This document shows, piece by piece, positions 3,419 to 50,203 of a DNA stretch of 64,000 bases; the first letter of the stretch is position 1, and each line of letters starts with the position of its first letter. The notes beneath the pieces are model-generated. The model saw only the letters and a list, made by a program, of their open reading frames with translations, searched no databases and was not told where the DNA came from. The stretch covers positions 64,001-128,000 of the forward strand of contig CAVYSY010000031.1 of the NCBI GenBank assembly GCA_963771175.1. The letters run 5' to 3'. Origin of the DNA: an uncultured delta proteobacterium (GTDB lineage Bacteria; Myxococcota; Myxococcia; Myxococcales; Myxococcaceae). Position numbers and translations under genes: made by a program.

Positions 3419-4728
3419 TCACTTCGTCGGGCCCACCGGATTGGCGGCGACACCCGGGCGGAAGTTGAGCGCCCTCGTGGGGTCGTCCTTCACCAGGTGG
3501 TAGAACTCCTCGCGGAAGCGCTCCGGCGTGAGATGGGCGACCGCGCAGAACTGGGCCATCGTCTCCGGATTCTCGAAGTCCTCCCGCCTGAGCCGGAGCA
3601 TGAACGAGCGGGCAATCCGGTAGCGATCCGAGTCGATATCCACCATCCGCACCCGGGGCCGCCCGGTGGCCGGGTCCTTCATGTCCTGGAACGAGAATGG
3701 GATGGAACCGCCCGTTGACCATGGAGACCACTGCCTCGGACCCCCCATCGAGGATGTACCGGGCCGCGCAGTAACCGAGATCGCGCGTGTACTCCATGTC
3801 GAAGGGAATGGGATCCGCGCAGCGCACCTCGTACCCGATGGACTTGGGGATGAGGGTGGCCTTGATTCCCAGGCCGGCCAACCGCTCCTCCACGCCCTTC
3901 ACGAGGACCTCCCCCAAGTTGATCTGCGCCACATGGATGTTCCCCATGTGGTCTCGCGGGAGGTCCGTGTGCCGGGCCAGATCCTCGGGGTCGATACAGT
4001 CGGCGAGCCCCTCGGCGAGCAGGGCGATTCCATCCTGGCGGCCGTAGGACAGCCGCTTGATGACCGAGCCGGCGAGGATGTCGATCACCGTGGAGAACGG
4101 GACGGGGCAACCCTGGTGGAACTCCTCGGGGATGACACTGATGGTCGCCCCCACCGCCTTGCCGATCGACAGGGCGAGGTGCCCCGCCTTGCGTCCCTGG
4201 GCGACGACGAAGTACCAGCGCGAGGTGGTCTTCGCGTCGACCATGAGGTTCTTGACGATCTCCACCCCCACGTGGCGCGCGGTCTGGAACCCGAAGGTGC
4301 TCACGTCGAGGGGCAGGTCGATGTCGTTGTCGATCGTCTTGGGGACGTGAATGACCCGGACCTTCCCCCGCGTCTTCTCCGAGACTGATTTGAGCGAGGG
4401 TGGCGGTGCCGTCGCCTCCGATGGTGATGAGCATGCCCACGTCGAGCCGCTCGAGCGCATCGAGCGTCCGCTGGAGGTGCTCGGGGGTGCGGGTCGGGTT
4501 GGCCCGGGAGATGCCGATGTACGAGCCACCCCGGAAGTGGATGCGGCTGGTGTCGGCGATGGTGAGGGGGACGACGTGGGAGAGGTCTCCCTCGGCGAGC
4601 CACTTGAAGCCGTCCTGGATGCCGAGGACCTGCACTCCATCGAGGCAGGCCCGGATGGTGGCCGCTGCGATGACGCTGTTGATGCCCGGGGCGGGCCCCC
4701 CGGCGACGACGATGGCGAGCTTCTTCAT
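3419..4728 (-). CDS. pfkA: PfkA-superfamily 6-phosphofructokinase (frameshifted near 4385 and 3690)
   Basis: GGPAPGINSVI, IGGDGT, VPKTIDND, GRKAGHLA, IPEE, IGYEVRC motifs. Confidence 0.88.
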
Positions 4729-4921
4729 GGGTCTCTGTCCACTGGTGAGGTGACCTGCGCTCGGCAGGTGGCGTCGTGCTCCGCTCTCTGCCCGGAGTTT
4801 CACCCGGAGGGCCGGCGAAGCTCAGGAAAAAAAGCAGGTTCCCTACCTGGGAGTGCTTGGTGAGGGACGCCCCTCCCGTGCCATCGTCCCCGCCCGCCGT
4901 ACCCGAGGGGGACTCCACTCC

Positions 4922-5619
4922 GTGCTCCAAGCGCTGCTCGAGCTGCTCTACCCGCCCGCGTGCATCGCCTGCGCGAAGGTGATGCCCGTGCGCACCGCCT
5001 TCTGTGAGACGTGCGATGTCGCCGTGGAGCGACTGCCGCCCGCGCGCTGCCGCACCTGCGCCGAGCCCGGCACCTTCCCCCGCGACACCTGCCCGCGCTG
5101 CCGCCTCTCGCCCCCGCCCTTCTCCCGCGCCTGGGCCCCCTTCGCCCATGAGGGCCCCGTCGCCCGCGCCGTCCACCGCTTCAAGTACGAGGACCACCCG
5201 GAGGGCTCGCCCCCGCCCTCGCCGAGATGCTCGCCTCCGAGTGCCGCCAGTTCCTCTCCCAGGCCCCCGCCCTCCTCCTCGCCCTGCCCCTCCATGACCG
5301 GCGCTTCCGCGAGCGCAAATACGACCAGGCGCAGCTCCTCGCGAGCGAGCTGGCCCGAGCCACTGGTCGCGAGGCCCCGGTGGGACTCCTCACCCGCGCC
5401 CGGGAGACCCGTCGCCAGGTGGGCCTCTCCGAGTCCGAGCGGGCCCACAACGTCGCGGGCGCCTTCACCGCCTCCCCCTCGGCGGCCGGCCAGGAGTTCC
5501 TCCTCGTGGACGACGTGCTCACCACTGGCGCCACCGTCCGCGCCGCCGCCACGGCGCTCCGGGACGCCGGTGCCACCCGTGTCGAGGTCCTCACCCTCGC
5601 CCGGGCCTTTTCTCTATGA
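4922..5619 (+). CDS. comF: ComF family protein (double zinc ribbon plus PRTase; frameshift near 5203)
   Basis: LLYPPACIAC and further CxxC pairs; FKYE; LLVDDVLTTGAT. Confidence 0.88.
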
Positions 5620-5697
5620 GCCTCGCCCCTCATCTCCGCATCAGCGTGGGAGTGGACCTGATTCCGTGGAGGGTTCTCGGATTTCGACCTCGACTTC

Positions 5698-6159
5698 CTA
5701 TTGCAGGCGTACTTTCAGGCGCTCCACGATGCCACTGGGCCGCCCCATGAAGGTGTCGAGCAGGCGTTCCTCGACATGGTGCTCGTCCCAAACAGCCATT
5801 CGCTCGAGCCCGACACACTCCTGGGGCTCGGCACTTCTCGAATTGCCGACGGTGTCGAAGATCGTGCAGCGACGGAAGTCTCCCACGTCCTGTCTGAATT
5901 GGACAATGGGTTGAGCCAGGGACTCCTCAATCTTTCTCCGTCCAATGACCTCCCACGAGCTCGGCTCCAAATGGCGGACAGCAATCTTGAAAATGATTGA
6001 CTTGGATGCGATCCGGTCAAGGTCCGAGTCAGGGCTTTCGGTCCTGTACTCGTAGAAGGCATCAAACACTGGCGTAAGCGCCCTCCCATAACCGAAAGTG
6101 CCGTCGGCGAGGGGAATCCTCAAAAAGGACCCCGATCTATGTATGCGCACTTTCTTCAT
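5698..6159 (-). CDS. Imm26-like immunity protein
   Basis: GSFLRIPLADGTFGYGR N-terminus and GLERMAVW...HVEERL C-terminus; directly downstream of a toxin ORF; lower GC. Confidence 0.75.
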   Translation of the reverse strand: MKKVRIHRSGSFLRIPLADGTFGYGRALTPVFDAFYEYRTESPDSDLDRIASKSIIFKIAVRHLEPSSWEVIGRRKIEESLAQPIVQFRQDVGDFRRCTIFDTVGNSRSAEPQECVGLERMAVWDEHHVEERLLDTFMGRPSGIVERLKVRLQ

Positions 6160-6162
6160 TTC

Positions 6163-7260
6163 CTAATATCCCGTGTAAGAATGAAATTGACCCCAGCGCT
6201 CCGTGGCTGCGTCGTGAAACCGCCTGCCCCACGGATTGTCTTTCGCCACACCGCGCACGACATTCTCGGTCCGATATGGCTTTCCAGTGTCGGACTGGGC
6301 GCCCCCACGGGAATCAATCAACTGCTGCTCTCTTCCGCGGATCCGCCAATATGCGGCGTCGTCATATCTGCGGCCATAGTCAACGGCGGCCCCGACATCG
6401 AATCTATCAACCGTCGGGGGGTCGACCCCAGCATCCTTCGGCTCGTCGTTCTCGTCAATGTGATGGTTCATAGATCGAAGAATAACGGCCAGATACGCCT
6501 GAACGTCGAGAGACTTGGTGAGATCGACGACCATGCTGGTTCGCCCCGAGTAGTAGCGGTTGGTATTCCCATTGAGCCTCGTGTAGGTCACATATATGCG
6601 CCCCCGCCTTGTTTTGTCATTCTTGTCTGGTTCTGATTTTGGCGATGCGCCGGGAGGAGCGAGCGGGGCGGACGTCGGTCCCGTTTGGGCCTGGGAAGCC
6701 CTTGTTCCTGCGCCTTTGGGTGCATTGGGTGGATATTGACCTTGGACCCACCCAGACACATCGCCGAAGTGAGTGCCGTAAAACTCGTCCGCGATGTCGA
6801 TCGGGGTCTCCGACCCATCCACGGCCGCCTCGACGGTCAAGCAGAGCAAGAGCACACTACCGGCTGCCGCAACAACCGCGCCTCCAGTGACGACGAGCTC
6901 TTCCGCCGCACCACCGGCCCCTACTTCTCCCGCGGTCGTGCCGCCTTCTGGCACGAGCCGGAGCACGCCGCGTGGTATGCCATTACCCAACCCCTCGCCA
7001 GAGAGCCCCTCCAACGGAGGTGACGAGGGTGGAGTCAGCGGCACCGCTGGCGAAGCCGCCCCCAGCGTTGCCGCCACGGGCACTACTTCCACGCCAGCGC
7101 GAGCTGCATGAAACGCCTCATTCGGTGCCCCCGACGCAACGTAACGGCGCGGGACATAAACGCAGCGCTCTTGCTGACCCGTGGCGTGACGGACGCTTTG
7201 GGCAGCGCCGCTACACCCCACCAGAAACATGCAGAGCAGCACAGCCCACCCGCGTGACAT
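6163..7260 (-). CDS. lipoprotein polymorphic toxin (SitA-like) with putative URI/GIY-YIG-like nuclease C-terminus
   Basis: Lipobox LVGC; hydrophobic Ala/Gly-rich linker; C-terminal IYVTYT...YYSGRTS...RGREQQLI; immunity gene follows. Confidence 0.65.
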   Translation of the reverse strand: MSRGWAVLLCMFLVGCSGAAQSVRHATGQQERCVYVPRRYVASGAPNEAFHAARAGVEVVPVAATLGAASPAVPLTPPSSPPLEGLSGEGLGNGIPRGVLRLVPEGGTTAGEVGAGGAAEELVVTGGAVVAAAGSVLLLCLTVEAAVDGSETPIDIADEFYGTHFGDVSGWVQGQYPPNAPKGAGTRASQAQTGPTSAPLAPPGASPKSEPDKNDKTRRGRIYVTYTRLNGNTNRYYSGRTSMVVDLTKSLDVQAYLAVILRSMNHHIDENDEPKDAGVDPPTVDRFDVGAAVDYGRRYDDAAYWRIRGREQQLIDSRGGAQSDTGKPYRTENVVRGVAKDNPWGRRFHDAATERWGQFHSYTGY

Positions 7261-7493
7261 GCAGCGCCTCCTGGCGTTGCCTCCATCCTCAAACAGCTCG
7301 ATTCGAAGTTACAGGTAGGCCGTGTGTTCATGCCAACACGGTCCGCGTGTAGACGTCCGGGTAGATGGCTCCCTCAAGCGGGGGCGGAGCCGGGGCCGGC
7401 AGAGGCGAGCCCGCCGCCTTTGGCAGCGACAAGAGCCGAGGCGTGAATCAGGCAGCCGTGCCGCGCATTTCAAAACGCGGGCTCCGGCGCGTT

Positions 7494-7556
7494 TCCGTGG
7501 TAGACGTCTACCACGGATGTAGGCAATTCAACCACATCCATGGTAGACGTCTACCA
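7494..7556. repeat. two copies of the palindrome TGGTAGACGTCTACCA
   Basis: Perfect 24-bp palindrome TCCGTGGTAGACGTCTACCACGGA at 7494-7517 and a 16-bp copy at 7541-7556; spacer contains GGATGT...ACATCC inverted repeat. Confidence 0.9.
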
Positions 7557-7766
7557 CGCAAGCCGGCTCGGGGCCGTATGGAGGAAATCGGCTCGATGCC
7601 GTCCGGGAGGCGGGCCGGCCTGTGCCTCCTCCCTCGCCGGGTTGCCGACATTTCAGTTGATTGTCCGCCCACGACGTCGCATGCAGGGGAAGGCTCTCCG
7701 AAGCTCGGCTGTTCTCTGGCGCCGGCTCTCACCCCCGGCCCCCTTTCCGACGGACGAGGAACACGG

Positions 7767-10700
7767 ATGTCCCGTACCCCACGGCTCGCCGCGCTCTCGC
7801 GCACCACCTGGCTCGTCGCCCTGCTCACGCTCGCCTGCCCGCTGCTGACGCGCGCCGCCACCGAGAGCAGCGCCACGGCTGCCCGGGAACAGGCCGAGGA
7901 GGCCCTGAAGCTCGCCTCCTCGCCACGCGGGGCGGCCCAGCTCATCCGCCTGCATGCCTTCAAGGAGGACCTCGAGGACCTCACCCCGCTGGTGAGGGTC
8001 TACTCCGATGTGTCCACCCGACGCAGCTCGGACCCCCACACCCGCGCCACCGCCTCGTTGCTGCTGCTGGACCTGGAGCGCGCCCGCGGCCGGCTGAACC
8101 GCGCCGCCGAAGTGCAGGACGCGCTCGGCTTCATCGGCGACTACTACGTCGTCGGCGGCTTCGACAACGAGGGCAAGTCCGGCTGTGACACGAACTTCGG
8201 CCCCGAGGCGGCCGCGCTGGACCTCTCCGCCACCTACGCCGGTGCCAAGGGCCGCGAGGTGTCCTGGCGCAAGCTCTCCGTCAGCCCCGTGGACGGCTAC
8301 GTGGACCTGGGCGCCGCGCTGCGCCCCAACCGCGAGGCCGTGGCCTACGCCCTCACCTGGCTGGAGGCTCCGGCCGAGACGCGCGTGGCGCTCGGCGTGG
8401 GCACCTCCGGCGCCTTCCGCCTCTGGGTGAATGGCGAGAAGGTGGCCACCAGCGACAACTACAACGCGCCCCGCCCGGACCAGTCGCGCGTCTCCGTGCG
8501 CCTGCGCAAGGGCCTCAACCGCGTCCTCGTCAAGGTGTGCCAGGAGTCGGGCCCGCTCGGCTTCTACCTGCGCCGCGACCCGCCCGCCCGCATCCGCGCC
8601 ACCCTCCCCTCTCCCCTCCCCGCCCTCACCAAGGGCCCCTCCGCCGCGCCCCAGGCCCTGCCCACCCTCACCTCCGCCCTCAAGGACGCGGTGGCCAAGG
8701 CCCCCGAGGACGCGAAGCTGCGCGGCGAGTACGCCACGGTGCTCGACTTCTTCCGCGCCTATGACGAGCGCGAGCACACCGCCACCGTCGAGGCCGACCG
8801 CGCCGCCCGCGCCGCCCCGCAGGACGTGAAGCTGCAACTGCTGGCCGCCGAGGCCCACCGCGACGACCTCAACCTGCGCCGCCGCTTCCTCGAGGCCGCC
8901 GTGCGCGCGGACCCCGCCTCCATCCCCGCCCGCGTGGCGCTCGCCGAGCACGAGCTGAGCCGCGACCACCCCGAGCGCGCCGTGGAGCTGCTCAAGCCCG
9001 CGGTGGAGCTGGCCCCGGACTCGGCCGCCGCCCGCCTCGCGCTGGCGCGCGCCTACGAGGCGCTCGGACAGGTCTCCCGCGCGCACGTGATGGTGGACGA
9101 GACGCTCCAGCGGCTGCCGCGCGTGCCCCGCGTGGTGCGCGCCGCCGCCAGCTCCGCCCGGGTCATGGACCGCTCGCAGGACGCGGTGGCCCGGCTGCGC
9201 GTGGCCCTGGCGCTGCGCCATGACGACCGCTCCAGCCGCGCCGTGCTGGCCATGCTGCTGGCGGACCTGGGTCAGGTGGAGGCCGCCGCGCGCGAGTACG
9301 CGCAGCTGCTCACCCTGGACCCCTTCGACAACGCCACCCGCGTCAAGCTCGCGGAGCTGCGCGCCGCCAACGGCCAGCCCGACGCCGCCACCGCCCTGTT
9401 CGCCGAGGCCCGCGCCCTCTCCCCGGACGAGCCCGAGGTGTACGAGCGCGAGGGCCGTGCCCTGCTCGCCGCCGGCCGCCGCGAGGAGGCCCTGGCTTCC
9501 TTCGAGCGCTCGCTGGCGCTGCGCCCGCAGAACCCCTCCCTCAAGGAGGCCGTGCGCACCCTCAAGGGCGAGTCCGCCAGCGCGGGCACCCAGTACTTCG
9601 CGGACGCGAAGGCCGTCGCGAGCGAGGCCGAGGGCTACACCAACGAGGACGCCGTCTACCTCGTGGACACCACCTACGTGCGCGTGCAGAAGAGCGGCCT
9701 GTCCAGCCGGCTGCACCAGTTCGCCGTGAAGGTGCTCAACGCCCGCGGCGTGGAGGCCTTCCGCTCCCACCCCATCACCTACTCGCCGGATCGCCAGGAG
9801 GTGAAGATGCTCCGCGCCCGCATCACCAAGGCGGACGGCTCCGTGGTGGAGGGCTACGGCGAGAGCGACCGCAACATCAACGAGCCGTGGACGGGCATGT
9901 ACTACGACGCCCGCGCCAAGGTGCTCTCCTTCCCCGCGCTCGCCGCCGGGGACGTGCTGGAGCTGCAGTACCGCGTGGACGACACCGCCCAGGAGAACCT
10001 GCTGTCCGACTACTGGGGCGACGTGGAGAGCGTCCAGGGCGTCTACCCGAAGGTGCGCTACCAGTTCCTGGTGGACATGCCCAAGGAGCGGCCCCTCTAC
10101 TGGAACGAGAAGAAGCTGCCCGGCGTGGCGCACGCCCGCGAGGACGTGGACGGCGGTCGCGTCCTCTACCGCTGGAGCGCGAAGCACGTGGCCAAGGTGG
10201 TGCCGGAGCCCGGCATGCCCGGCTGGGCCGAGGTGGCCGCCAACCTCCACGTCTCCACCTACCGCACCTGGGACGAGGTGGGCCGCTACTGGTGGGGCCT
10301 CGTGCGCGACCAGCTCACGCCCAACGAGGAGCTGCGCAGCACGGTGGACACCGTGCTGCAGGGAGTGGATCGCAAGGACCAGCAGGCGGTGGTGCGCGCC
10401 ATCTACAACTTCGTGGTGACGAACACGCGCTACGTGGCGCTGGAGTTCGGCATCCACGGCTACAAGCCCTACCGGGTGGACCGGGTGCTGTCGCGCCGCT
10501 TCGGCGACTGCAAGGACAAGGCGAGCCTCATCCACGCCATGCTGAAGGTGGCGGGCGTGGACAGCCGCCTGGTGCTGCTGCGCATGCGCAACCTGGGCTC
10601 CATCGGCGAGGAGCCGGCGAGCCTGGCGGCCTTCAACCACGCCATCGTCTACGTGCCCCAGTTCGACCTGTACCTGGACGGCACCGCCGAGTTCCACGGC

Positions 10701-27366: not shown

Positions 27367-27837
27367 TCATTCGCGAAGGGACGGCTCGCTGAGGCAGGCT
27401 TCCTCGTACTCCCAGCGCTCCGAGGTATTGTCCGCATCGAGCAAATGCTTCACTGCGTCCAGCGAGACCGAAAGGGGGACATCGACAGCGAAGAGATTCG
27501 GAATGTGACTCTGCTCGGTGGCACACCCGAGCTCCTCCAGCTTATGACGGAGAACAGGAGCATCGGACTCTTCGTAGGCGATGACGCGCAGCGTGCTGTG
27601 CCCAGAGGGCCGGACGACCTCGACGAAGCCGAGCGAGCCATCGTCCTTCCTGACGGCCGAGACGACATCCTCGTAGGCAACTCCGCGTGCGAAGAAGGGA
27701 ATGTTGCCAAGACGATACAGTCCTTGCGCGACCGGCGTTGCCCATACGCTTTCACAGGTCACGGGCGGATAGCCGTCCTCATCCTGCTGTAGCTCGAAGA
27801 GGATTTTGACGAGGTTCTCGGAATTGTCGCTAGCCAT
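27367..27837 (-). CDS. DUF4265-like protein, putative immunity
   Basis: ESVWA...YRLGNIPFFARGVAYEDVV...PSGHSTLRV...FAVDVP; follows HNH ORF. Confidence 0.75.
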   Translation of the reverse strand: MASDNSENLVKILFELQQDEDGYPPVTCESVWATPVAQGLYRLGNIPFFARGVAYEDVVSAVRKDDGSLGFVEVVRPSGHSTLRVIAYEESDAPVLRHKLEELGCATEQSHIPNLFAVDVPLSVSLDAVKHLLDADNTSERWEYEEACLSEPSLRE

Positions 27838-27845
27838 TCCGTGCC

Positions 27846-28355
27846 TCACTGGGGATTGTCGCTCTTCTTGAGGTTGCAGTCACGGCATAGCACCTGTCCA
27901 TTCGAGGCGTCGCCCTTGCCGCCCTGGGCTTTCGGTATGACATGGTCGACATGGGCCTCATTGGAGGGGGGAGTAGTGCCCTTGACGTGCTTCTGGCCTG
28001 GAACTGTTTCTGTTTTGCAGTTCTCGCAGATGATCTTTCCGTCGTTTTTTGCTGCATTCTTCTCTTTGACGAGGGACTTCCCCTTCTTGGTGAAGTTGAG
28101 ACTGCTCTTCCCCTTTCCGGCAACTGCTCCGGAAGGAGCCATCCCCAGCTCGTCAGCACCGGTGTCTGGTAGAGGCGCCCAGGCGGAGGCCGGAGCAGAC
28201 AGCGAGTTGGAATCGATTTCCGGCGAAAGGTCTCTTGCCACGCATGAGCGAGCGCTCGCGCCATGCGCTTGGGCTGGAACATGAGCGAATCCCTGCGCTT
28301 CAATCGAGAGCAGCAGAGGGAGCAGGCGCAGGCCGAAGAGAACGTATGGGAGCAT
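27846..28355 (-). CDS. HNH endonuclease with N-terminal signal-like peptide (putative toxin)
   Basis: CENC...HVDHVIPKAQGG...NGQVLCRDCN; AT-richer sequence. Confidence 0.8.
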   Translation of the reverse strand: MLPYVLFGLRLLPLLLSIEAQGFAHVPAQAHGASARSCVARDLSPEIDSNSLSAPASAWAPLPDTGADELGMAPSGAVAGKGKSSLNFTKKGKSLVKEKNAAKNDGKIICENCKTETVPGQKHVKGTTPPSNEAHVDHVIPKAQGGKGDASNGQVLCRDCNLKKSDNPQ

Positions 28356-28436
28356 GCCTTGAGGGTATCAGGCGGGCTCCTCACTGCTGGCGAGTATCAT
28401 TCGACTCGCGCAGCTCTCTTCAAGAGGGTGCATCCC

Positions 28437-30072
28437 TCAGAGCCAACTCGGAGCGGAGCGCCCCAGTCCCCTCAAGGCCCGCTCCGCTGCCCTCACGCCA
28501 AACCAGTTGGCCTCCTCGAAGAGGGCCATGCCCCCCAGGTCCGAGTGCGCGAAGTGCAGCGCCTCCCCCAGGCTCTCCTGCGCCGCGAAGCGCGCCGGCC
28601 CCCACATGAAACCCGGAGAGGGGCGCACCATCGCGTGCCCCCAGCGCATCACCTCCAGGCGACGGGCCTGCTCGGCGATGCCCGGGTGCGCGGCCATCAG
28701 GTCCGCCATCACCAGCCCCTCCCACTTGGCGTAGCCGGCGGAGAGCACCTTCTGGCGCTCGGCCTTCGCGTCCAGTCCGGCCATGGGCAGGTACCAGGTG
28801 AGCACCGTGGGCCCGCGCTCGTCCATGCGCAGCGACTGGTGCGTGGCCACCACGTAGCCCAGGCTACGGCTCTCGTAGAAGACGTTGTCCCACGCCAGCG
28901 GGAAGCCCCGGGAGCGAGGCAGCTCCGCGAGCGTCAGGTTGGCCACCACCCACGGTCCGTACTGGAAGGCTCCCAGCCACTCGGGGCGCTTCTCCCGCCA
29001 CGGCGCAACCACGTGCGCCGCGACGAAGCGCGGACAGGCCAGCACCACCTGCCGAGCCCGGAACGCCCGAGGTCTCCCCGTCCCCGCCTCCACCGCGTCC
29101 ACCCGGCAGCCCCCTTCCACGGGCTCCACCGAGTGCACCAGCACGTCCCGCTCCACCTGCCCCGCCGGCAGCGAGGACAGCAACTGCTTCACCAGTCGGC
29201 CGTTGCCCTCGGGCCAGCTCAGGAAACCCTCGCTGCGCTCGCCCTTCCCGTCCTGCCGCGCGGCGAAGTACCAGATGCCCGCCCAGGCGGAGACGCCCTC
29301 GGCCGTGGTGCCGTAGTCGTCCCGGCACGCGTAGTCCACCAGCCAGCGCAGCCTCGGCGAACGGAAGCCCTCCGCCTCCAGCCACTGCGCCATCGTCACC
29401 CGGTCGAGCGCCGTCCACTCCGCGTCGTCGCTGGAGAGCGCCGTGGGCACCGCGAAGGCCTTGCGCCCCTTCGCGTCCCGCGCCGCCCCGAAGGCATTCA
29501 TCCTCGCCTCGAAGCGCTCCAGCTCCGCGAGGTCCGCCGCGCTCGCCCCCGCGCGCAGGTAGAGGCCCTCGTACCACTCGCCCTTGTAGAAGAGACGCTC
29601 CTCGGGCTCGCGAATGAGCATCTCCTCGGCGAAGGTGGGGTAGCCCTCCGCGTCCACGCCCGTCACCGCGCCCATCTCGCGCAGCAGCCGCATCACCGGC
29701 CCGGCGTCCACCAGCGGGGCCGGCAGGTAGTGCGCGCCCCACGGGTACGCGGACACCTCGTTGCGCCCCGAGCGCGACGTGCCCCCCGGGCTCCGAGTCC
29801 AGCTCCACCACCCGCACGTCCTTCACGCCCGCGGCCGCCAGTCGCCACGCCGCGCTCAGGCCCGCCATGCCCGCGCCCACCACCAGCACGTCCACCGGCT
29901 GCGCTTCCGCCGCACGCGGCAGCGGGCCGCCCCGCAGCTTGTGTCCCACGTCCACGGCCCTGTCCACGATGGCCCCGGGCACCGGCTCGCGCGGACGCTC
30001 CCGCCGGCACGCACTGGCCGCCACCGCCGAGCCGAGGAACGCGGCGACGAGCTCCCGCCGCGTCAGTTCCAC
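28437..30072 (-). CDS. FAD-dependent amine-oxidase-like oxidoreductase (frameshift near 29785)
   Basis: TRRE Tat-like leader; [36 protein letters not shown]. Confidence 0.85.
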
Positions 30073-35351: not shown

Positions 35352-35807
35352 CTACAGCAGGGGTGATGGGAGAGAACGTTTCTCGTGGGGAAGACGGATT
35401 TCATCCTCCAGTTGTAGTCCGTCCGTCCAGTTTTCCGCGTCCGCGTTCAACACCAACTGACCCCCGATTCTTTGCAACGTGATGTGCTCTCCGTTGAAAA
35501 GGAGGACACCGTCCCGGCTGTGCTCCAGAAGGAGCATCGTCGCGCGCAGCATGACCCGATTTCCCTCTTCGTAATCATCGCTGTTCGGGTCGAGCCGGAA
35601 TCCCACCGATAGCTCGGGGATGAAATGAAATCCTTCCTCGATCAACGACTTCCAGTTCTGATTCGGCTCAATGGCGCTGATCCAGAGCGCGGGTCCGATC
35701 AAATGAGTGGCATCACCCCACGTCATCCCGAAGCGCTCAGCCATGAGACGCAATGCATCTTCGGGCGTCATGGTGGTTGATAGGTCCAAGCTACTATCAA
35801 GTCCCAC
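35352..35807 (-). CDS. sitI3: SitI3-like immunity protein
   Basis: MGLDSSLDLST...VGFRLD...DGVLLFNGE...LVLN pattern; downstream of tRNase toxin. Confidence 0.7.
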   Translation of the reverse strand: MGLDSSLDLSTTMTPEDALRLMAERFGMTWGDATHLIGPALWISAIEPNQNWKSLIEEGFHFIPELSVGFRLDPNSDDYEEGNRVMLRATMLLLEHSRDGVLLFNGEHITLQRIGGQLVLNADAENWTDGLQLEDEIRLPHEKRSLPSPLL

Positions 35808-35825: not shown

Positions 35826-37243
35826 TCACGGGAAGAGTGAGACGACCGTACCCGCCTTGATGCCGATGACTTTTTTCAGGCCGGGAATCGTCCAATCCGT
35901 GAGCTGCTTCTTCATGGCATCGAGCGTGACGCTGGTGTCGTCAAGATTCAAAATGATTCTGCTTGCCTGATCTCTTTGTACCTTTTGGGTCTCCATGTTG
36001 GTGGCGATATTCCGGGCACTTGGGCTGGACGGGGCATAACAGTCGAAATACTCCCCATCGATCTTGTAATCAGGCTTCGTTCCGTTCGGCTTGGGTAGAG
36101 GGTTTTGCTCCACATGGTAGCCGCTGTCCGCGAGGATTCGCGCAGAATCATTCTCGCGGTCGATTGCTCTGATGTTTTCTGGCCTCTTGTCATTGGGTCC
36201 GGGTCGAGTCGGGCGTCCTGTCAGGCGACCCTTCGTGCCTGAACTACCGCCTGCACCTCCGCCCAGGGCCGTCATGGCGACCGCGCCCGGCGTGAGGGCG
36301 ATGGTGAATGCGCCCTCGGCGGACACAGCCACCGAGCGCACCTCGCCCACCGCCGCCAGTCGGAAGCCGCCCTGCGTCTCCGCCAGCACCGCGGCTCGCG
36401 AGTAGCCCGGCAGCCCCGGCCCCTTCCCCGCCAATCCCACCGTATTGCCGATGGCCGCCGTCGCCAGCAGCACGAAGGCCCTCGCCGCGTGCCTGCCCAT
36501 CACCTTGCCGTACCGCTCGCCCGCCTCCCGCAACTCCTCGAAGTTCCTGGCCCGGTCCACCTCTTCCACCAACTGGACCCAGCCCCCTATCAACCCCCAC
36601 ACCGTGTCCACCCCGAGGTAGGCGATGAGGGCAGCCGTCAGGGTAGCGGCCAGGCCCTTGCTCACCGGCTCGGGTAGCACCCAGAGCAGCATGTACATGG
36701 CCATGGCGGACACGATGCTGGCCCGCACCGCCTCGGGGTCCGCCAGCTCCACCAGCGCCGCCTTCGTCTCGTCCCACACCGAGTCCACGGCGATGGCCAT
36801 CGCCAGCGTGTACCGCCCATCCGCATCGAGCGTGGGCGTGTCCTTCAGCAGGGAGAAGCAGTCCTCCTGGTGGCTCCTTCGCTCGCACCAGCGCCCATAA
36901 CCCCGCGTCACCTCGTCCTGCTCCGCGAGCAGCCGGGGCCCTCGCGTATCCGACGCCGCGGCTTCCAGGCGCCGTCCCGTCCACTCCAGGTACACCTCCT
37001 CCTGCCAGGACTCGAACATCAGCGCCCGTGCCCGCCTCAGGGGATGCGCAGCGGGCTTCACGTCCCGGGCCACCTCCGCCAGCGACTGCTCGAGCTCGTC
37101 CGCGCGCAGCCGCACCGGCTCCTGGCCAGGGTCCGGGGTGTGGACGCGGGGCTTGCCCTGTCCTGTGTCCAGGCGTACGGCACGGGTAACGGTGCCGCAG
37201 CCGGCGAGCAGCACCAGCGCCAGCGCATCCAGAGCGGCTTCAT
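35826..37243 (-). CDS. SitA5-like lipoprotein toxin with CdiA_C-like tRNase tip (frameshift in signal peptide near 37226)
   Basis: MKPLWM(A)LALVLLAGC lipobox; VRLDTGQG; LWVLPEPVSK; toxin RENDSA...VEQNP...PDYKIDGEYFDCYAP...QASRIILNL. Confidence 0.8.
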
Positions 37244-37441
37244 GGGAACGCCTCCGAGTCCTGACCACCCTCTTTTGGGTAGCCAGCCTAACGGAATACC
37301 TGATGGGTCCGACAGGGCCCGAGGCAGCGCTCATGCGGGGACGCCAGGATGGGTCTGAATGGCGAGACCTCCTGGGTGCGGCAAACGGGCTCCGGCGTCC
37401 CAGGAGCCGTGAAACCGCTGCACGGAGAAAGGCCCGCTCAC

Positions 37442-37457
37442 TTGTAGACGTCTACCA
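37442..37457. repeat. third copy of the GTAGACGTCTAC palindrome
   Basis: TTGTAGACGTCTACCA, 15/16 identical to the copies at 7498 and 7541. Confidence 0.85.
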
Positions 37458-37619
37458 CTGAACCAGGTGCGCGTGGTCCCGCTCCTCCACTGGCAGGGCG
37501 GACCCCCGCGGCACGGTGCCGTCACCGCCCATGTCCCGCCGTCCGGCAGCTTCTCCAACTACTACCCGAGCGACATCACCGAGACGATGGTGGCCCTCGC
37601 ACTCGACACGAGGGCCTGA
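37458..37619. pseudogene. chimeric gene relic: internal fragment of lipase-CHAT gene fused to 3' end of upstream lipase gene
   Basis: 37458-37550 matches 40108-40203; 37549-37610 matches 35275-35336. Confidence 0.9.
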
Positions 37620-37632
37620 ATCCCGGGAGGTA

Positions 37633-37956
37633 TCACTCCCGGGCCCCTATGAACCAGACGATGTCTCCAATGTCGGGGGGGCGTCCAAGGCGTGCCCACT
37701 CCGAGTCGATGCGTGCGAGCTGCTCGTCCACCGAACCACCCCAGGGCTGGTAGTCACCGCCCGGAAGCAGGCGGATGGCCCGGAGCAAGCCCTGGCTCAG
37801 CAAGGGCTGGAGAGCCCGAAGCGCTTCATGACGAATCTCCTCCTCCGACGCTCCGGGCCTGAGCTGGCGGATGTCATCAGCAATCCACCACAAGCCAATA
37901 TCGCTACTGGCACCAGCCTCGACCCAGCGCATTCGTGCCTCTTCCAGTTGCCTCAC
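37633..37956 (-). CDS. 107-aa hypothetical protein coupled to the lipase-CHAT gene
   Basis: GTGA start/stop overlap; DIGLWW...EWARLGRPPDIGDIVWF. Confidence 0.65.
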   Translation of the reverse strand: MRQLEEARMRWVEAGASSDIGLWWIADDIRQLRPGASEEEIRHEALRALQPLLSQGLLRAIRLLPGGDYQPWGGSVDEQLARIDSEWARLGRPPDIGDIVWFIGARE

Positions 37957-47269: not shown

Positions 47270-50203
47270 ATGTCGTTGCGGAGCCCCTGGCGCAGGCTGT
47301 CCTGGAGCATCACCTGTCTCACCCTGAGCCTGAGCCTGCTGGCCTTGGCGCGGGCCTGGAGCGCGAGCCCCCCCCCGGACAGTGGCCCGCCGCGGGTCGA
47401 CGTCGTGGACGAGGAGACCCAGGCTGGAGCCGGGGCCGTCTTGCCGAGCCTCACCCTCCCAGGCGGCTTCACGCAGGAGGTGGTGATCTCGAGACTGCGG
47501 CTCCCAACGGCCTTCGTGAGCCTGCCGGATGGCCGGCTCTTCATCGCCCTGAAGGGCGGCGAGGTCCGGGTGTTCAAGAACGGCGCCGTCCTGCCCACGC
47601 CCCTCATCGACCTGAGCGCTCGGGTGAACGAGCACCAGGACCGGGGCGTGGTGGGCATTGCCATCGATCCCGACTTCGCGACCAACGGCCATCTCTACCT
47701 CGCCTATACCTATGACGATGATGCGGTGGACGACACGGGACCCAAGACGGGACGCGTGTCCCGGTTCACGGTGGTGGGAGACACCGCCTCGCCGCAGAGC
47801 GAGGTCGTCCTGCTCGGCACGCTGGTGGGCAACTCGTGCCATGACTTTCCCGACGGCTCGGACTGCATCCCCTCGGACAGCACCTCGCACACCGTGGGCC
47901 AGCTCAAGTTCGCGCCGGATGGCACGCTCTTCGTGACGCTGGGAGACGGCGCCCGGTTCGACGCGGTGGATGACGATGCGTTCAGGGCGCAGGACCTCGA
48001 CTCCCTGGGAGGCAAGGTGCTTCGCATCACGCGGAGCGGGCAGGGCCTGCCCACCAATCCCTTCTGGAATGGCAATGCCGCGTCCAACCGCTCGAAGGTG
48101 TGGAGCTACGGGCTGCGCAATCCCTACCGGTTCAACTTCCGCCCCGGCACCAGCATCGCCTACCTCGGAGACGTGGGCTGGCGTAATTACGAGGAGATCA
48201 ACGTCGCGACCGCGGGAGCGAACTTCGGCTGGCCCTGCTACGAGGGCCCCTTCCGCCAGAGCGGCTACGCGCCCAAGCCGATCTGCCAGGCGCTCTACAA
48301 CCGCGGCGAGTCCGCCGTGAAGATGCCGCTGCACTACTGGAGCCACGCTGACGGTTACGCGGCCACGGGCGGAGCCTTCTACACCGGGACGGCGTATCCA
48401 GCGGAGTGGCGGGGCGCCTACTTCTTCGGGGACTACTCCGCGTGGCTCCACACCCTCCGGGTGGACGCGAACGACAACCTGGTGCCCGGCAGCGTGACGA
48501 CCTTCGCGACCGCCGCGGGAAACATGACGGATATCGAGATCGGGCTGGACACCAACTTGTATTACGTCGACACCTTCGCGGGGGAGCTGCGCCGCATCCG
48601 CTACACGGCGGGCAACAGTCCTCCGGTGGCGGTGGCCTCGGCGACTCCGCGCGAGGGGCCCGTGCCGCTGAAGGTGCTGTTCTCCAGCGCGGGCAGCAGC
48701 GATCCGGATGGGGATGCACTTGCCTACACCTGGGACTTCGGGGATGGCACCGCCATCTCCACGCTGGCCAACCCGGAGCATACGTACATGACGGCGGGCC
48801 GCTACACGGCCCGACTGACCGTGAGCGACGGGCGGGGGGGCACGCACTCCGCCTCCGTTCAGCTCTCCGTGGGCAACCGGGCCCCCGTCCCCACCATCGC
48901 CTCGCCCTCGAGCACCCTCCTGTTCAAGGTGGGCGATGTGGTGAGCTACTCGGGCTCCGCGAGTGACCCCGAGGATGGGCCCATCCCCGACAGCCAGCTT
49001 TCATGGACCATCACCCTGCACCACTGCTCGGCGGGGACATGCCATGTCCATCCCTTCACCACGAGCACGGGGGCGAGTGGGTCCCTCACCATCGATGACC
49101 ATGGGGATGAGGTCTACTTCGACATCACCCTCACGGCGACGGACTCTGCGGGCCTGACGGGCACGCAGACGGTGACGATTCATCCGCAGACGGTCCAGTT
49201 CACGCTGCAGACGTCTCCCCCCGGACTGCAGGTCGTCCAGGATGGGACGAGCGGAACAGCTCCGCTGACGCGCACGGTCATCGCCGGCTCCTCGCACAAC
49301 GTCTACGCGCCCTCGCCCCAGGGGCTCCACACCTTCAAGGACTGGTCGGATGGTGGAGCCCAGCAGCACCAGGTCCGGGTCGGGACGACGGACGCCACGT
49401 ATACGGCCACGTTCACCGAGTCCGCCTCATCCTGTCCGCTGGGCCAGTACCGAGCGGAGTACTTCAACAACCGGACCCTGACGGGCACACCGGTACTGGT
49501 GCGCTGCGAGGCGGCTCCGTTCGCCTACAGCTGGGGGAGCAGCCCCGCCCCCGGGGTGAACGCGGACAACTTCTCGGTGCGCTGGTCGGGACGCTTCTCC
49601 TTCACGGCAGGCACCTTCAACTTCATCGCCCGGGCGGATGATGGAGTCCGGGTGTCCGTGGATGGCACGCGCATCATCGATGCCTGGCGGGACCAGCCGG
49701 CCACGACGTATCAAGCCAACCGAACGATGACGGCCGGCGAGCACGTGGTCGTCATGGAGTACTACGAAAACGCCATCGGCGCCGTGGCCTCGCTCCGGTG
49801 GGAAGCCATCTCCTGTCCGGAGGGACAGGTCCCACCAGGCCTGTACCGGGCGGAGTACTTCAACAACCGGACCCTGAGTGGCACGCCCGTGCTGGTGCGC
49901 TGCGAGCTGGCTCCGCTCGACAACAACTGGAGAGCGGGCAATCCCGCCATCGGCGTGAACGCGGACAACTTCTCGGTTCGCTGGTCGGGGCGCTTCAACT
50001 TCGCGGCGGGCACCTACACCTTCGTCGCCCGGGCGGATGATGGAGTCCGGGTGTACGTGGATGGCACGCGCATCATCGATGCCTGGCGGGACCAGGGGCC
50101 CACGACCTACCAGGCCACCTTGCCCCTGCCGGCCGGCGAGCACCTGGTCGTCATGGAGTATTACGAGAACGCGGTCGACGCGATGGCCTCGCTCCGGTGG
50201 TAG
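47270..50203 (+). CDS. secreted PQQ-type sugar dehydrogenase propeller + PKD + two PA14 domains, copy 1
   Basis: YGLRNPYRF, GDVG, NFGWP; WDFGDG PKD; DNFSVRWSG and ADDGVRV twice. Confidence 0.88.
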   Translation: MSLRSPWRRLSWSITCLTLSLSLLALARAWSASPPPDSGPPRVDVVDEETQAGAGAVLPSLTLPGGFTQEVVISRLRLPTAFVSLPDGRLFIALKGGEVRVFKNGAVLPTPLIDLSARVNEHQDRGVVGIAIDPDFATNGHLYLAYTYDDDAVDDTGPKTGRVSRFTVVGDTASPQSEVVLLGTLVGNSCHDFPDGSDCIPSDSTSHTVGQLKFAPDGTLFVTLGDGARFDAVDDDAFRAQDLDSLGGKVLRITRSGQGLPTNPFWNGNAASNRSKVWSYGLRNPYRFNFRPGTSIAYLGDVGWRNYEEINVATAGANFGWPCYEGPFRQSGYAPKPICQALYNRGESAVKMPLHYWSHADGYAATGGAFYTGTAYPAEWRGAYFFGDYSAWLHTLRVDANDNLVPGSVTTFATAAGNMTDIEIGLDTNLYYVDTFAGELRRIRYTAGNSPPVAVASATPREGPVPLKVLFSSAGSSDPDGDALAYTWDFGDGTAISTLANPEHTYMTAGRYTARLTVSDGRGGTHSASVQLSVGNRAPVPTIASPSSTLLFKVGDVVSYSGSASDPEDGPIPDSQLSWTITLHHCSAGTCHVHPFTTSTGASGSLTIDDHGDEVYFDITLTATDSAGLTGTQTVTIHPQTVQFTLQTSPPGLQVVQDGTSGTAPLTRTVIAGSSHNVYAPSPQGLHTFKDWSDGGAQQHQVRVGTTDATYTATFTESASSCPLGQYRAEYFNNRTLTGTPVLVRCEAAPFAYSWGSSPAPGVNADNFSVRWSGRFSFTAGTFNFIARADDGVRVSVDGTRIIDAWRDQPATTYQANRTMTAGEHVVVMEYYENAIGAVASLRWEAISCPEGQVPPGLYRAEYFNNRTLSGTPVLVRCELAPLDNNWRAGNPAIGVNADNFSVRWSGRFNFAAGTYTFVARADDGVRVYVDGTRIIDAWRDQGPTTYQATLPLPAGEHLVVMEYYENAVDAMASLRW

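Follow-up and report, generated by a model that had tools for sequence, protein, structure and literature searches.

A family of perfect palindromic repeats at the junctions of accessory toxin-immunity cassettes in a myxobacterial genome

Integron attC sites are hairpin sites at the boundaries of small accessory cassettes; their structure is conserved over their sequence, and empty and occupied states occur. In the pdif/Xer modules of Acinetobacter plasmids, small modules that include toxin-antitoxin pairs lie between palindromic 11-6-11 (28-bp) sites, with no recombinase inside. Composites of miniature inverted-repeat transposable elements (MITEs) are made of two small non-coding repeats with terminal inverted repeats that bracket passenger genes, and lone copies occur elsewhere; parS, KorB OB and Noc NBS sites are perfect palindromes of 14–16 bp bound by ParB-family proteins. 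The repetitive extragenic palindrome (REP) families described in the accessible text of one study comprise 20–100 units, arranged as dimers with structured spacers near gene 3′ ends, and include CGTC families without linked transposases (PMC3733652). Here we compare with these systems a palindrome doublet, and the intergenic repeat family to which it belongs, found in a 64,000-nucleotide stretch of DNA (the window) from an uncultured delta proteobacterium of the Myxococcaceae (assembly GCA_963771175.1, contig CAVYSY010000031.1, positions 64,001 to 128,000, forward strand).

Myxobacteria have sitAI toxin-immunity cassettes by the dozen, and these set cooperation partners. As far as the accessible text of two papers goes, these cassettes are acquired horizontally and lie near mobile elements (PMC5562445, PMC10047993), often prophage-like or other mobile elements (PMC5562445), and some myxobacteria carry more than 80 sitAI loci (PMC10047993).

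The palindrome TGGTAGACGTCTACCA, a 16-mer, occurs exactly at 7498–7513 and again at 7541–7556, with 43 bp from centre to centre, and the first copy grows into the perfect 24-mer TCCGTGGTAGACGTCTACCACGGA at 7494–7517. Both points had been made in an earlier note on the window and are confirmed by a window scan, as is the third copy that it had placed near a second toxin gene, TTGTAGACGTCTACCA at 37442–37457, which matches at 15 of 16 positions (one mismatch). With up to three mismatches allowed, the scan returned four matches to the 16-mer against 0.05 expected, a count that none of 100 shuffles reached; the fourth, at 529 (three mismatches), seems unrelated. That no full copy lies elsewhere, as the note had put it, is true within the window; the source genome (9.83 Mb, 58 contigs, 69.4% G+C) holds ten exact copies of the 12-mer core GTAGACGTCTAC at seven loci, mostly as pairs 43–55 bp apart. 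The parts of the two window sites are as follows.

7455–7493, no strand: left flank of the extended element (..TTTCAAAACGCGGGCTCCGGCGCGTT..), which holds the 12-mer 7478–7489; its paralogue L001 lies upstream of a TraB-like toxin gene
7494–7517, no strand: P1, a perfect 24-bp palindrome (TCCGTGGTAGACGTCTACCACGGA) with its 16-mer core at 7498–7513
7518–7536, no strand: spacer holding a small inverted repeat, GGATGTAGG..CCACATCC; in the long hairpin it is the apical stem-loop
7537–7560, no strand: P2, the second palindrome, with its 16-mer core at 7541–7556 and imperfect outer arms
7561–7618, no strand: right flank of the extended element (..GGCCGTATGGAGGAAATCGGCT..), ending at the right boundary of the inserted segment
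37380–37397, no strand: remnant of the left-flank motif, CAAACGGGCTCCGGCG, recognised by alignment
37438–37461, no strand: the third copy, a hybrid 24-mer TCACTTGTAGACGTCTACCACTGA with a left arm of the CACTT type and a right arm of the CAGTG type

Other copies carry similar TGTGG..CCACA spacers, and the third copy aligns with P2 of a doublet whose P1 has decayed. In alignment, the longer flank of the first site is common to the paralogous copy L001 and to the orthologous copy in genome G005. As the note had proposed, the doublet folds as a single long hairpin: 7488–7566 has a minimum free energy of −27.6 kcal/mol when folded as DNA (z −9.0) and of −51.3 kcal/mol when folded as RNA (z −10.8). 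Since each palindrome pairs with itself, separate local hairpins could form just as well. The leader 12-mer CGGGCTCCGGCG that the note had found at both sites is indeed exact at 7478 and 37386, but taken alone it is at chance level in this GC-rich window (five matches with up to one mismatch against 4.1 expected), and it is of interest only within the longer shared flank ..CAAAACG(C)GGGCTCCGGCG... Scans with promoter and terminator consensus sequences found nothing at either window site, neither site has a terminator-like U tract, and an Rfam scan of 7200–7900 gave only generic miRNA-type hairpin matches, far under the gathering scores.

The window 16-mer is the core of a minor subfamily (GTAGAC|GTCTAC) of a larger intergenic repeat family. 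Genome-wide, the count of GTAGACGTCTAC ties for the highest among 180 palindromes of the same composition (mean 0.4), and GACGTC is the most frequent centre (60) of the 467 perfect palindromes whose arms measure 8 bp or more. The outer arms (T)CACT(T/C)...(A/G)AGTG(A) are shared by the cores CTGGACGTCCAG (39), GTAGACGTCTAC (8), GTTGACGTCAAC, ACAGACGTCTGT, CCAGACGTCTGG, GTAGTCGACTAC and CTGGTCGACCAG. The family consensus is approximately TCACTT-NNN-GACGTC-NNN-AAGTGA, with perfect palindromes of 22–24 bp that are mostly doublets 41–56 bp apart; a spacing of 43 bp is the most frequent, and 46, 53 and 56 bp are also found. The source genome has about 74 family sites in at least 40 intergenic clusters. 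Reversing the outer arms as a control leaves 0 sites against 74, and sites with at least eight of nine arm pairs number 39 for GACGTC/GTCGAC centres against 0–6 for ten control centres. The major CTGGAC subfamily is built like the window element, with a palindrome, a spacer of about 19 nt and a second palindrome, and some lineages add 40–60 bp of conserved flank to the doublet. Certain clusters contain three or four different palindrome variants adjacent to one another, some copies reach perfect palindromes of 28–32 bp (11-6-11 or longer), and hybrid palindromes exist whose halves come from different subfamilies (for example CCA|CAG and GTA|AAC).

The core GTCACCGGTGAC (16 copies) has the same outer arms and is a different thing. 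It forms separate intergenic tandem arrays of three to five or more copies of a 41-bp unit (..CCGCTTGTCACCGGTGACAAGTGAAAC..) with an ACCGGT centre and CACTT/AAGTG outer arms.

C23:17805, C27:72875, C3:137396–137650, C57:143418 and C7:75790, no strand: 41-bp tandem arrays of a perfect-palindrome unit in the source genome

In a search of 41 relatives, the family was restricted to a single genus. Its pattern is found in 15 of 17 congeners (0–29 copies) and in none of 23 genomes of other genera, with 0–1 matches to reversed-pattern controls, and the pattern of the GTAGAC subfamily is found in 13 of the 17 congeners (0–52 copies) plus one other genus. G003, G008, G014 and G015 have 0–1 copies. Species differ in their mix of subfamilies. 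Among the matches listed from a public genome collection, the multi-copy records are titled Archangium and other taxa give single matches. Neither PMC5562445 nor PMC10047993 names a palindrome or inverted repeat in its accessible text, the word "repeat" being absent from that of the latter, and the accessible text of PMC3733652 gives no Myxococcota example ("Myxo" is absent). In literature mostly outside subscription journals, no REP description for this phylum was found, the exact 12-mer appeared only in an unrelated C. elegans preprint, and CTGGACGTCCAG together with Myxococcus gave no papers.

The palindromy is actively kept by compensatory change. In an alignment of 99 distinct copies, pre-chosen for at least seven of nine arm pairs and related to one another, eight of ten stem pairs have changes on both sides, and double-sided changes occupy 159 cells against 45.7 ± 5.2 after shuffling (0 of 500 shuffles reach 159). 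Because these copies are pre-selected and related, more weight belongs to compensatory changes seen at the same locus between the same flanks, where the window has TCCGTG..CACGGA and G005 has TCACTG..CAGTGA. At the orthologous position G001 has a GTTGAC|GTCAAC doublet, and in G003, a genome with one family copy and no exact copies of the subfamily, the copy at the window locus has decayed. The four invariant columns of the alignment are the central G-CG-C of GACGTC, and the centre is the most conserved part.

The genes and variable segments at the two window sites, on which the following comparisons draw, are these.

5615–7618, no strand: accessory segment (immunity gene, toxin gene and element), missing from the empty site of five congeners
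5698–6159, minus strand: Imm26-family immunity gene (PF15428, 45.6 bits, cut-off 23.3)
6163–7260, minus strand: 365-aa lipoprotein, presumed toxin, with the lipobox LVGC; not SitA5 by NCBIfam
35352–35807, minus strand: SitI3-family immunity gene (NF040657, 95.9 bits, cut-off 31)
35826–37244, minus strand: SitA5-family lipoprotein toxin with a CdiA_C C-terminal domain (NF050093, 334.8 bits, cut-off 160; PF18451, 59.5 bits)
37319–37948, no strand: segment with the element and a 107-aa minus-strand open reading frame (ORF; 37633–37956), missing in three species with the same SitA5 cassette at the locus

The palindromes lie 238–296 bp from the toxin start at 7260 and 198 bp from that at 37244, both genes being on the minus strand, in agreement with the distances of about 240–300 and about 200 bp upstream in the note. 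Its description of both toxins as SitA-like stands for the gene starting at 37244 (SitA5, 334.8 bits) but not for the lipoprotein starting at 7260, which scores only 16 bits to SitA5, reaches no SitA model and has only its lipobox and the Imm26 neighbour to recommend it; an Atlas look-up for this protein found only a Myxococcota "Lipoprotein" cluster.

The accessory segment 5615–7618 occupies a variable hot spot, with a double-zinc-ribbon gene on one side and a DUF3857/transglutaminase gene on the other. These flanking genes join directly in five species, are separated by a fill of 315–396 bp in three, and enclose other or extra cassettes in nine. The element is the right-hand end of the insert, and homology with the empty-site species resumes at about 7618. 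At the second locus six species are empty, with core genes 9–56 bp apart. The idea that the two window sites, 30 kb apart, are the boundaries of an island was rejected, as ordinary core genes, among them those for histidine kinases and trehalose-phosphate synthase, lie between them.

In seven species (G001, G004, G009, G013, G016, G017 and G007; loci L061–L068, orthologues of window positions 7550–7620 or so) the right end of the insert has a different conserved block, about 70 bp long. It holds the hairpin CCCTCTCCC-AGA-GGGAGAGGG and is possibly a further junction repeat.

Elements stand on both sides of six cassettes: L112, L115 and L116 in G000 and L024, L026 and L028 in G016. The bracketing copies are direct at L024 and inverted at L115. 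At the L024 locus G016 has the order element-cassette-element, with direct repeats of about 143 bp that are roughly 95% alike as judged by eye, G007 has a lone element and no cassette, and G004 and G001 have neither, only a 30–33 bp junction; the flanks of G004 and G001 are too diverged from those of G007 to define a target-site duplication. In G013, contigs around the L024-type cassette end before any palindrome position could be reached. Lone and occupied states also alternate at the MoaA|RR-HD locus, which is occupied in G016 and has a lone element in G000, and at the AmiA|RR locus, which is occupied in G000 and where the lone element of G016 aligns with the cluster on the right in G000. 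In four to five further species, 0.8–7 kb of other DNA occupies the lone-element locus L123; at a second such locus, L122, four of five species compared have the flanks on other contigs. Relatives' draft assemblies seem to be interrupted at the repeats or next to them, and at the window doublet relatives' contigs (X4) end inside P1 (7509) and start inside P2 (7553).

Genes around the elements were called with a crude method based on GC content at third codon positions (GC3), and the context classes and distances that follow are approximate. Clusters lie between two leftward genes (13), divergent genes (13), convergent genes (10) and two rightward genes (8), and four are inside called ORFs. About half are within about 30 bp of a stop codon, leftward gene starts are all at least 49 bp away, and many clusters adjoin housekeeping genes. 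A recognised toxin or immunity gene lies within about 2 kb of 16 of 40 clusters in the source genome, and the GTAGAC subfamily has such a neighbour at six of its seven loci, all but L002. Nineteen SitA5 loci of the source genome pass the curated cut-off; four of them have a cluster within 700 bp and six have one within 2.5 kb, where random placement gives means of 0.17 and 0.44 and none of 5000 trials reaches the observed four and six. In G016, 7 of 21 clusters adjoin Tox-REase-5/Imm52 or TsiV cassettes, with lipoboxes on the toxins, and three more adjoin kinase/DUF2381 sets; in the source genome, kinase genes lie between two GTTGAC palindromes some 6.7 kb apart. The genome-wide scan that the earlier note had proposed, for the motif beside toxin/immunity loci and breakpoints, thus finds an association (6 of 19 SitA5 loci against 0.44 expected); the motif is not scattered independently of accessory DNA, because the link with cassettes and synteny breakpoints is real.

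Several genes beside the elements deserve mention in their own right. About 170 bp downstream of a GTAGAC doublet with window-like extended flanks lies the gene at about 6210–9567 of locus L001 (source genome, contig C11) for a large protein resembling TraB (362 bits, cut-off 700), with OmpA and thrombospondin-type repeats and a PT-TG region of the pre-toxin type, as though a polymorphic toxin had been joined to a TraB-like anchor; TraB is an outer-membrane-exchange protein. Just downstream of a GTAGAC palindrome, a 143-aa ORF without family occurs at L004 (6137–6568, source genome) and L034 (4194–4625, G016), and at both a GTTGAC-type palindrome or its remnant sits between the GTAGAC palindrome and the ORF. 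Two unannotated ORF families of low GC3 also lie beside elements, one of about 300 aa (L120 1309–2208, L121 2936–3850, L122 3268–3926) and one of about 150–220 aa (L112 4088–4543, L118 5064–5582, L125 4073–4741); both may be unrecognised toxin or immunity families. Elsewhere in the window, 47270–50203 and 50427–53360 encode tandem 977-aa paralogues with the same GSDH/PKD/PA14 domain order, apparently a recent tandem duplication.

The reading that we favour, and offer tentatively, is that the family is a hairpin-prone repeat, akin to REPs and to REP doublets forming hairpins (REPINs), that serves on the DNA level as a junction or hot spot for accessory cassettes, through general recombination or breaks at palindromes. 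It takes the observed family, with its co-varying arms, its position at junctions, its bracketing of cassettes, the alternation of lone and occupied states and the enrichment near toxins, and adds to them a recombination mechanism that we infer. A palindrome unit could be extruded either as a pair of hairpins or as a single long one. It would act on DNA and independently of strand, in keeping with the inconsistent orientation of the extended element relative to accessory DNA and with mismatched stem positions that show no sense-strand excess of G·U over A·C. The units would serve as portable homology blocks, and perhaps as palindromes prone to breakage; through general recombination from unit to unit, a cassette would be inserted beside a resident unit, and later loss of the cassette would leave a lone unit. 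The two window sites may well be junction elements of this kind, outside the toxin operons.

A number of observations weigh against this reading. At the first locus, the empty sites of five species hold no element. At the second, three species that carry the window SitA5 cassette have only 37–152 bp before the next core gene, which therefore cannot hold the whole 630-bp element-bearing segment, in a comparison whose search E-value threshold would not reveal a bare element. No element lies within 2.5 kb of 13 of the 19 SitA5 loci, two paralogues of the 7260 cassette also lack one, and no family palindrome lies near a third toxin-type module in the window (27367–29756, minus strand, 27.4–29.8 kb), which comprises a 439-aa ORF without family, a 169-aa HNH nuclease ORF and a DUF4265 protein. 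With these cases and the three species that have too little room, the note's claim that the motif marks SitA cassettes does not hold in general. Between the paralogous cassettes L021 and L028 (88%), homology begins at about the toxin start, ends shortly after the immunity stop and does not reach the elements. Crossover from element to element of a fixed unit is therefore too simple an account of how the cassettes are carried, and since the elements of L021 and L028 are separately homologous, on the 3′ side at one locus and the 5′ side at the other, cassette and element are separate modules. No recombination event was caught: an excised circle, hybrid junction or strain polymorphism was not seen, and the contigs from four DNA runs at 3500–10500 came only from relatives, had no informative joints and say nothing of expression or excision. 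By the GC3 proxy, atypical neighbours are not significantly enriched (18 of 40 clusters against 14.3 ± 2.9), and some of the association with toxins could come from shared, permissive hot spots.

A further difficulty is that no mobilising enzyme was found for the repeat family. In a scan of the neighbours of 7 + 18 + 30 loci, no integrase, recombinase or transposase gene adjoins the elements, and the same loci have no integron integrase family and no cassette arrays, a whole-genome intI search not having been made. No DNA-binding family recurs among the neighbours of 40 + 21 clusters, and when 522 neighbouring ORFs were clustered no small DNA-binding protein recurred; the recurrent families are Imm52, TsiV, SitA5 N-termini, a TsiV-linked toxin and two unknown families. 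REP-associated tyrosine transposases (RAYTs) were considered as mobilisers and rejected. Matches are weak (about 24 bits to PF01797 and 45 bits to NF047646, cut-off 80), no family palindromes lie within 2.5 kb of three RAYT-like genes, and the two are not co-distributed: four species with the repeat lack any match, and five matches occur in one that has no subfamily copies. A divergent RAYT-like N-terminal domain is found in the multi-copy genes at L048 1324–3036 (C21) and two C44 loci, which have no flanking palindromic repeats.

Among the alternatives, one that we regard as unlikely is that one or several DNA-binding proteins (a dimeric transcription factor, or a protein like ParB/KorB) use the palindromes as operators and would control or silence the neighbouring cassettes, with pairs about four helical turns apart binding two dimers. 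Perfect palindromes of 16–24 bp, paired and mostly 43 bp apart, are consistent with such sites, most element-bearing toxin cassettes have a copy 50–600 bp upstream of the toxin start as judged from the loci, and the copy in G003 has decayed in a genome without exact subfamily copies, as if the cognate factor had been lost. However, about ten inner-triplet variants occur in one genome, with differing variants within one cluster, and one binding factor would not explain the symmetric co-variation. Placement is also awkward for an operator: convergent genes enclose 10 of 44 clusters, roughly half of the clusters sit next to a stop codon, an element is lacking from paralogous cassettes and from 13 of 19 SitA5 loci, and the window element is outside the upstream region of about 80–180 bp common to paralogous cassettes. 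No recurrent DNA-binding family was met near the 40 + 21 clusters, although a factor acting in trans could still serve. The toxin-regulon operator, one of two readings offered by the earlier note, is a poor fit and is not supported.

The note's other reading, a recombination site, fits the bracketed cassettes and the lone-element sites, but no enzyme, circle or exact crossover point was found. As a dedicated site-specific system encoded elsewhere (compare attC and Xer pdif), with arms of 9–11 bp about the 6-bp crossover region GACGTC, it appears improbable. A symmetric crossover region would lack directionality, the bracketing copies are direct at L024 but inverted at L115, and the distance from the palindrome to the end of cassette homology is not fixed. 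Both window loci have element-free empty sites, and no integrase or recombinase gene lies beside the scanned loci. Such a system would nevertheless account for the 9-6-9 geometry (11-6-11 or longer in some copies), for a centre that is the most conserved part, with four invariant columns, and for six bracketed cassettes and three lone-versus-occupied loci. It would also suit the mosaic clusters of three or four different palindromes at cassette edges and the hybrid palindromes CCA|CAG and GTA|AAC, though these hybrids are equally explained by one or two transitions. In its most developed form, which we rate just as low, the doublets would be attachment sites of a dispersed integron-like exchange, in which an unlinked structure-specific or Xer-type enzyme would cross over in GACGTC and shuttle toxin-immunity and kinase cassettes among dozens of chromosomal sites. 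Were it true, it would explain how very large kin-discrimination toxin repertoires are built and reshuffled.

Finally, it is doubtful that the units are RNA-level hairpins (bidirectional terminators, insulators or mRNA-stabilising 3′ structures) that lie near toxins only through shared permissive hot spots: the predicted fold is very stable, the stems co-vary, about half of the clusters are near stop codons, a bias that matches the REP distribution reported in the accessible text of PMC3733652, and none is less than 49 bp from a leftward gene start, but 13 of 44 clusters lie between divergent genes, there is no terminator-like U tract, the direct repeats of about 143 bp and the lone-versus-occupied series need a DNA-level event, and mismatched stem positions in tandem gene contexts show no sense-strand excess of G·U over A·C (18 vs 21, a weak test with crude gene calls), which lends no support to a strand-specific RNA role.

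Under the favoured reading of a DNA-level junction repeat, the family would be a REP-like repeat with unusual traits, namely perfect palindromes, a conserved centre and no RAYT. A repeat family at cassette edges, together with orthologous sites that are lone in one species and bracketed in another, provides a testable handle on the shuffling of toxin repertoires.

Among described systems, parS, KorB and Noc sites offer a resemblance only: perfect 16-bp palindromes, dispersed, but unlike them the family has many sequence variants in one genome, and no ParB-family partner was found, none having been sought. As in MITE composites, two copies of a small non-coding repeat bracket passenger genes and lone copies are seen, and the two palindromes of a unit serve as its inverted termini; here, however, no target-site duplication is definable and no related autonomous insertion sequence or transposase was found for the family elements. 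The likeness to attC lies in hairpin-forming, structure-conserved sites at cassette boundaries with empty and occupied states. Unlike attC, the family sites have no adjacent integrase/attI or cassette array, the palindromes are perfect, without extrahelical bases, the cassettes beside them appear to carry their own upstream regions, and the sites are dispersed over at least 40 loci. With pdif sites the family shares scattered, recombinase-free bracketing of small modules, and its geometry, with perfect copies of up to 28–32 bp, is compatible with theirs, but its sites are chromosomal doublets with a spacer and a symmetric GC-rich hexamer centre, in direct or inverted brackets. The closest likeness is to REPs and REPINs, as far as the accessible text on these describes them: short extragenic palindromes with stems of 8–10 bp and loops of 4 nt, in tens of copies that vary among species, mostly doublets with structured spacers (20–100 bp in REPs), able to form a single long hairpin and found near gene 3′ ends. 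The family differs in that no GTAG/CGTC head, as described in that text, stands beside the stem in the 99-copy alignment and that no RAYT flanked by family repeats was found. Unlike REPs and REPINs, too, its palindromes are perfect, its conserved bases are in the GACGTC centre and the outer arms, its clusters are just as common between divergent genes as in other contexts, and it is strongly tied to toxin-immunity cassettes, which it brackets.

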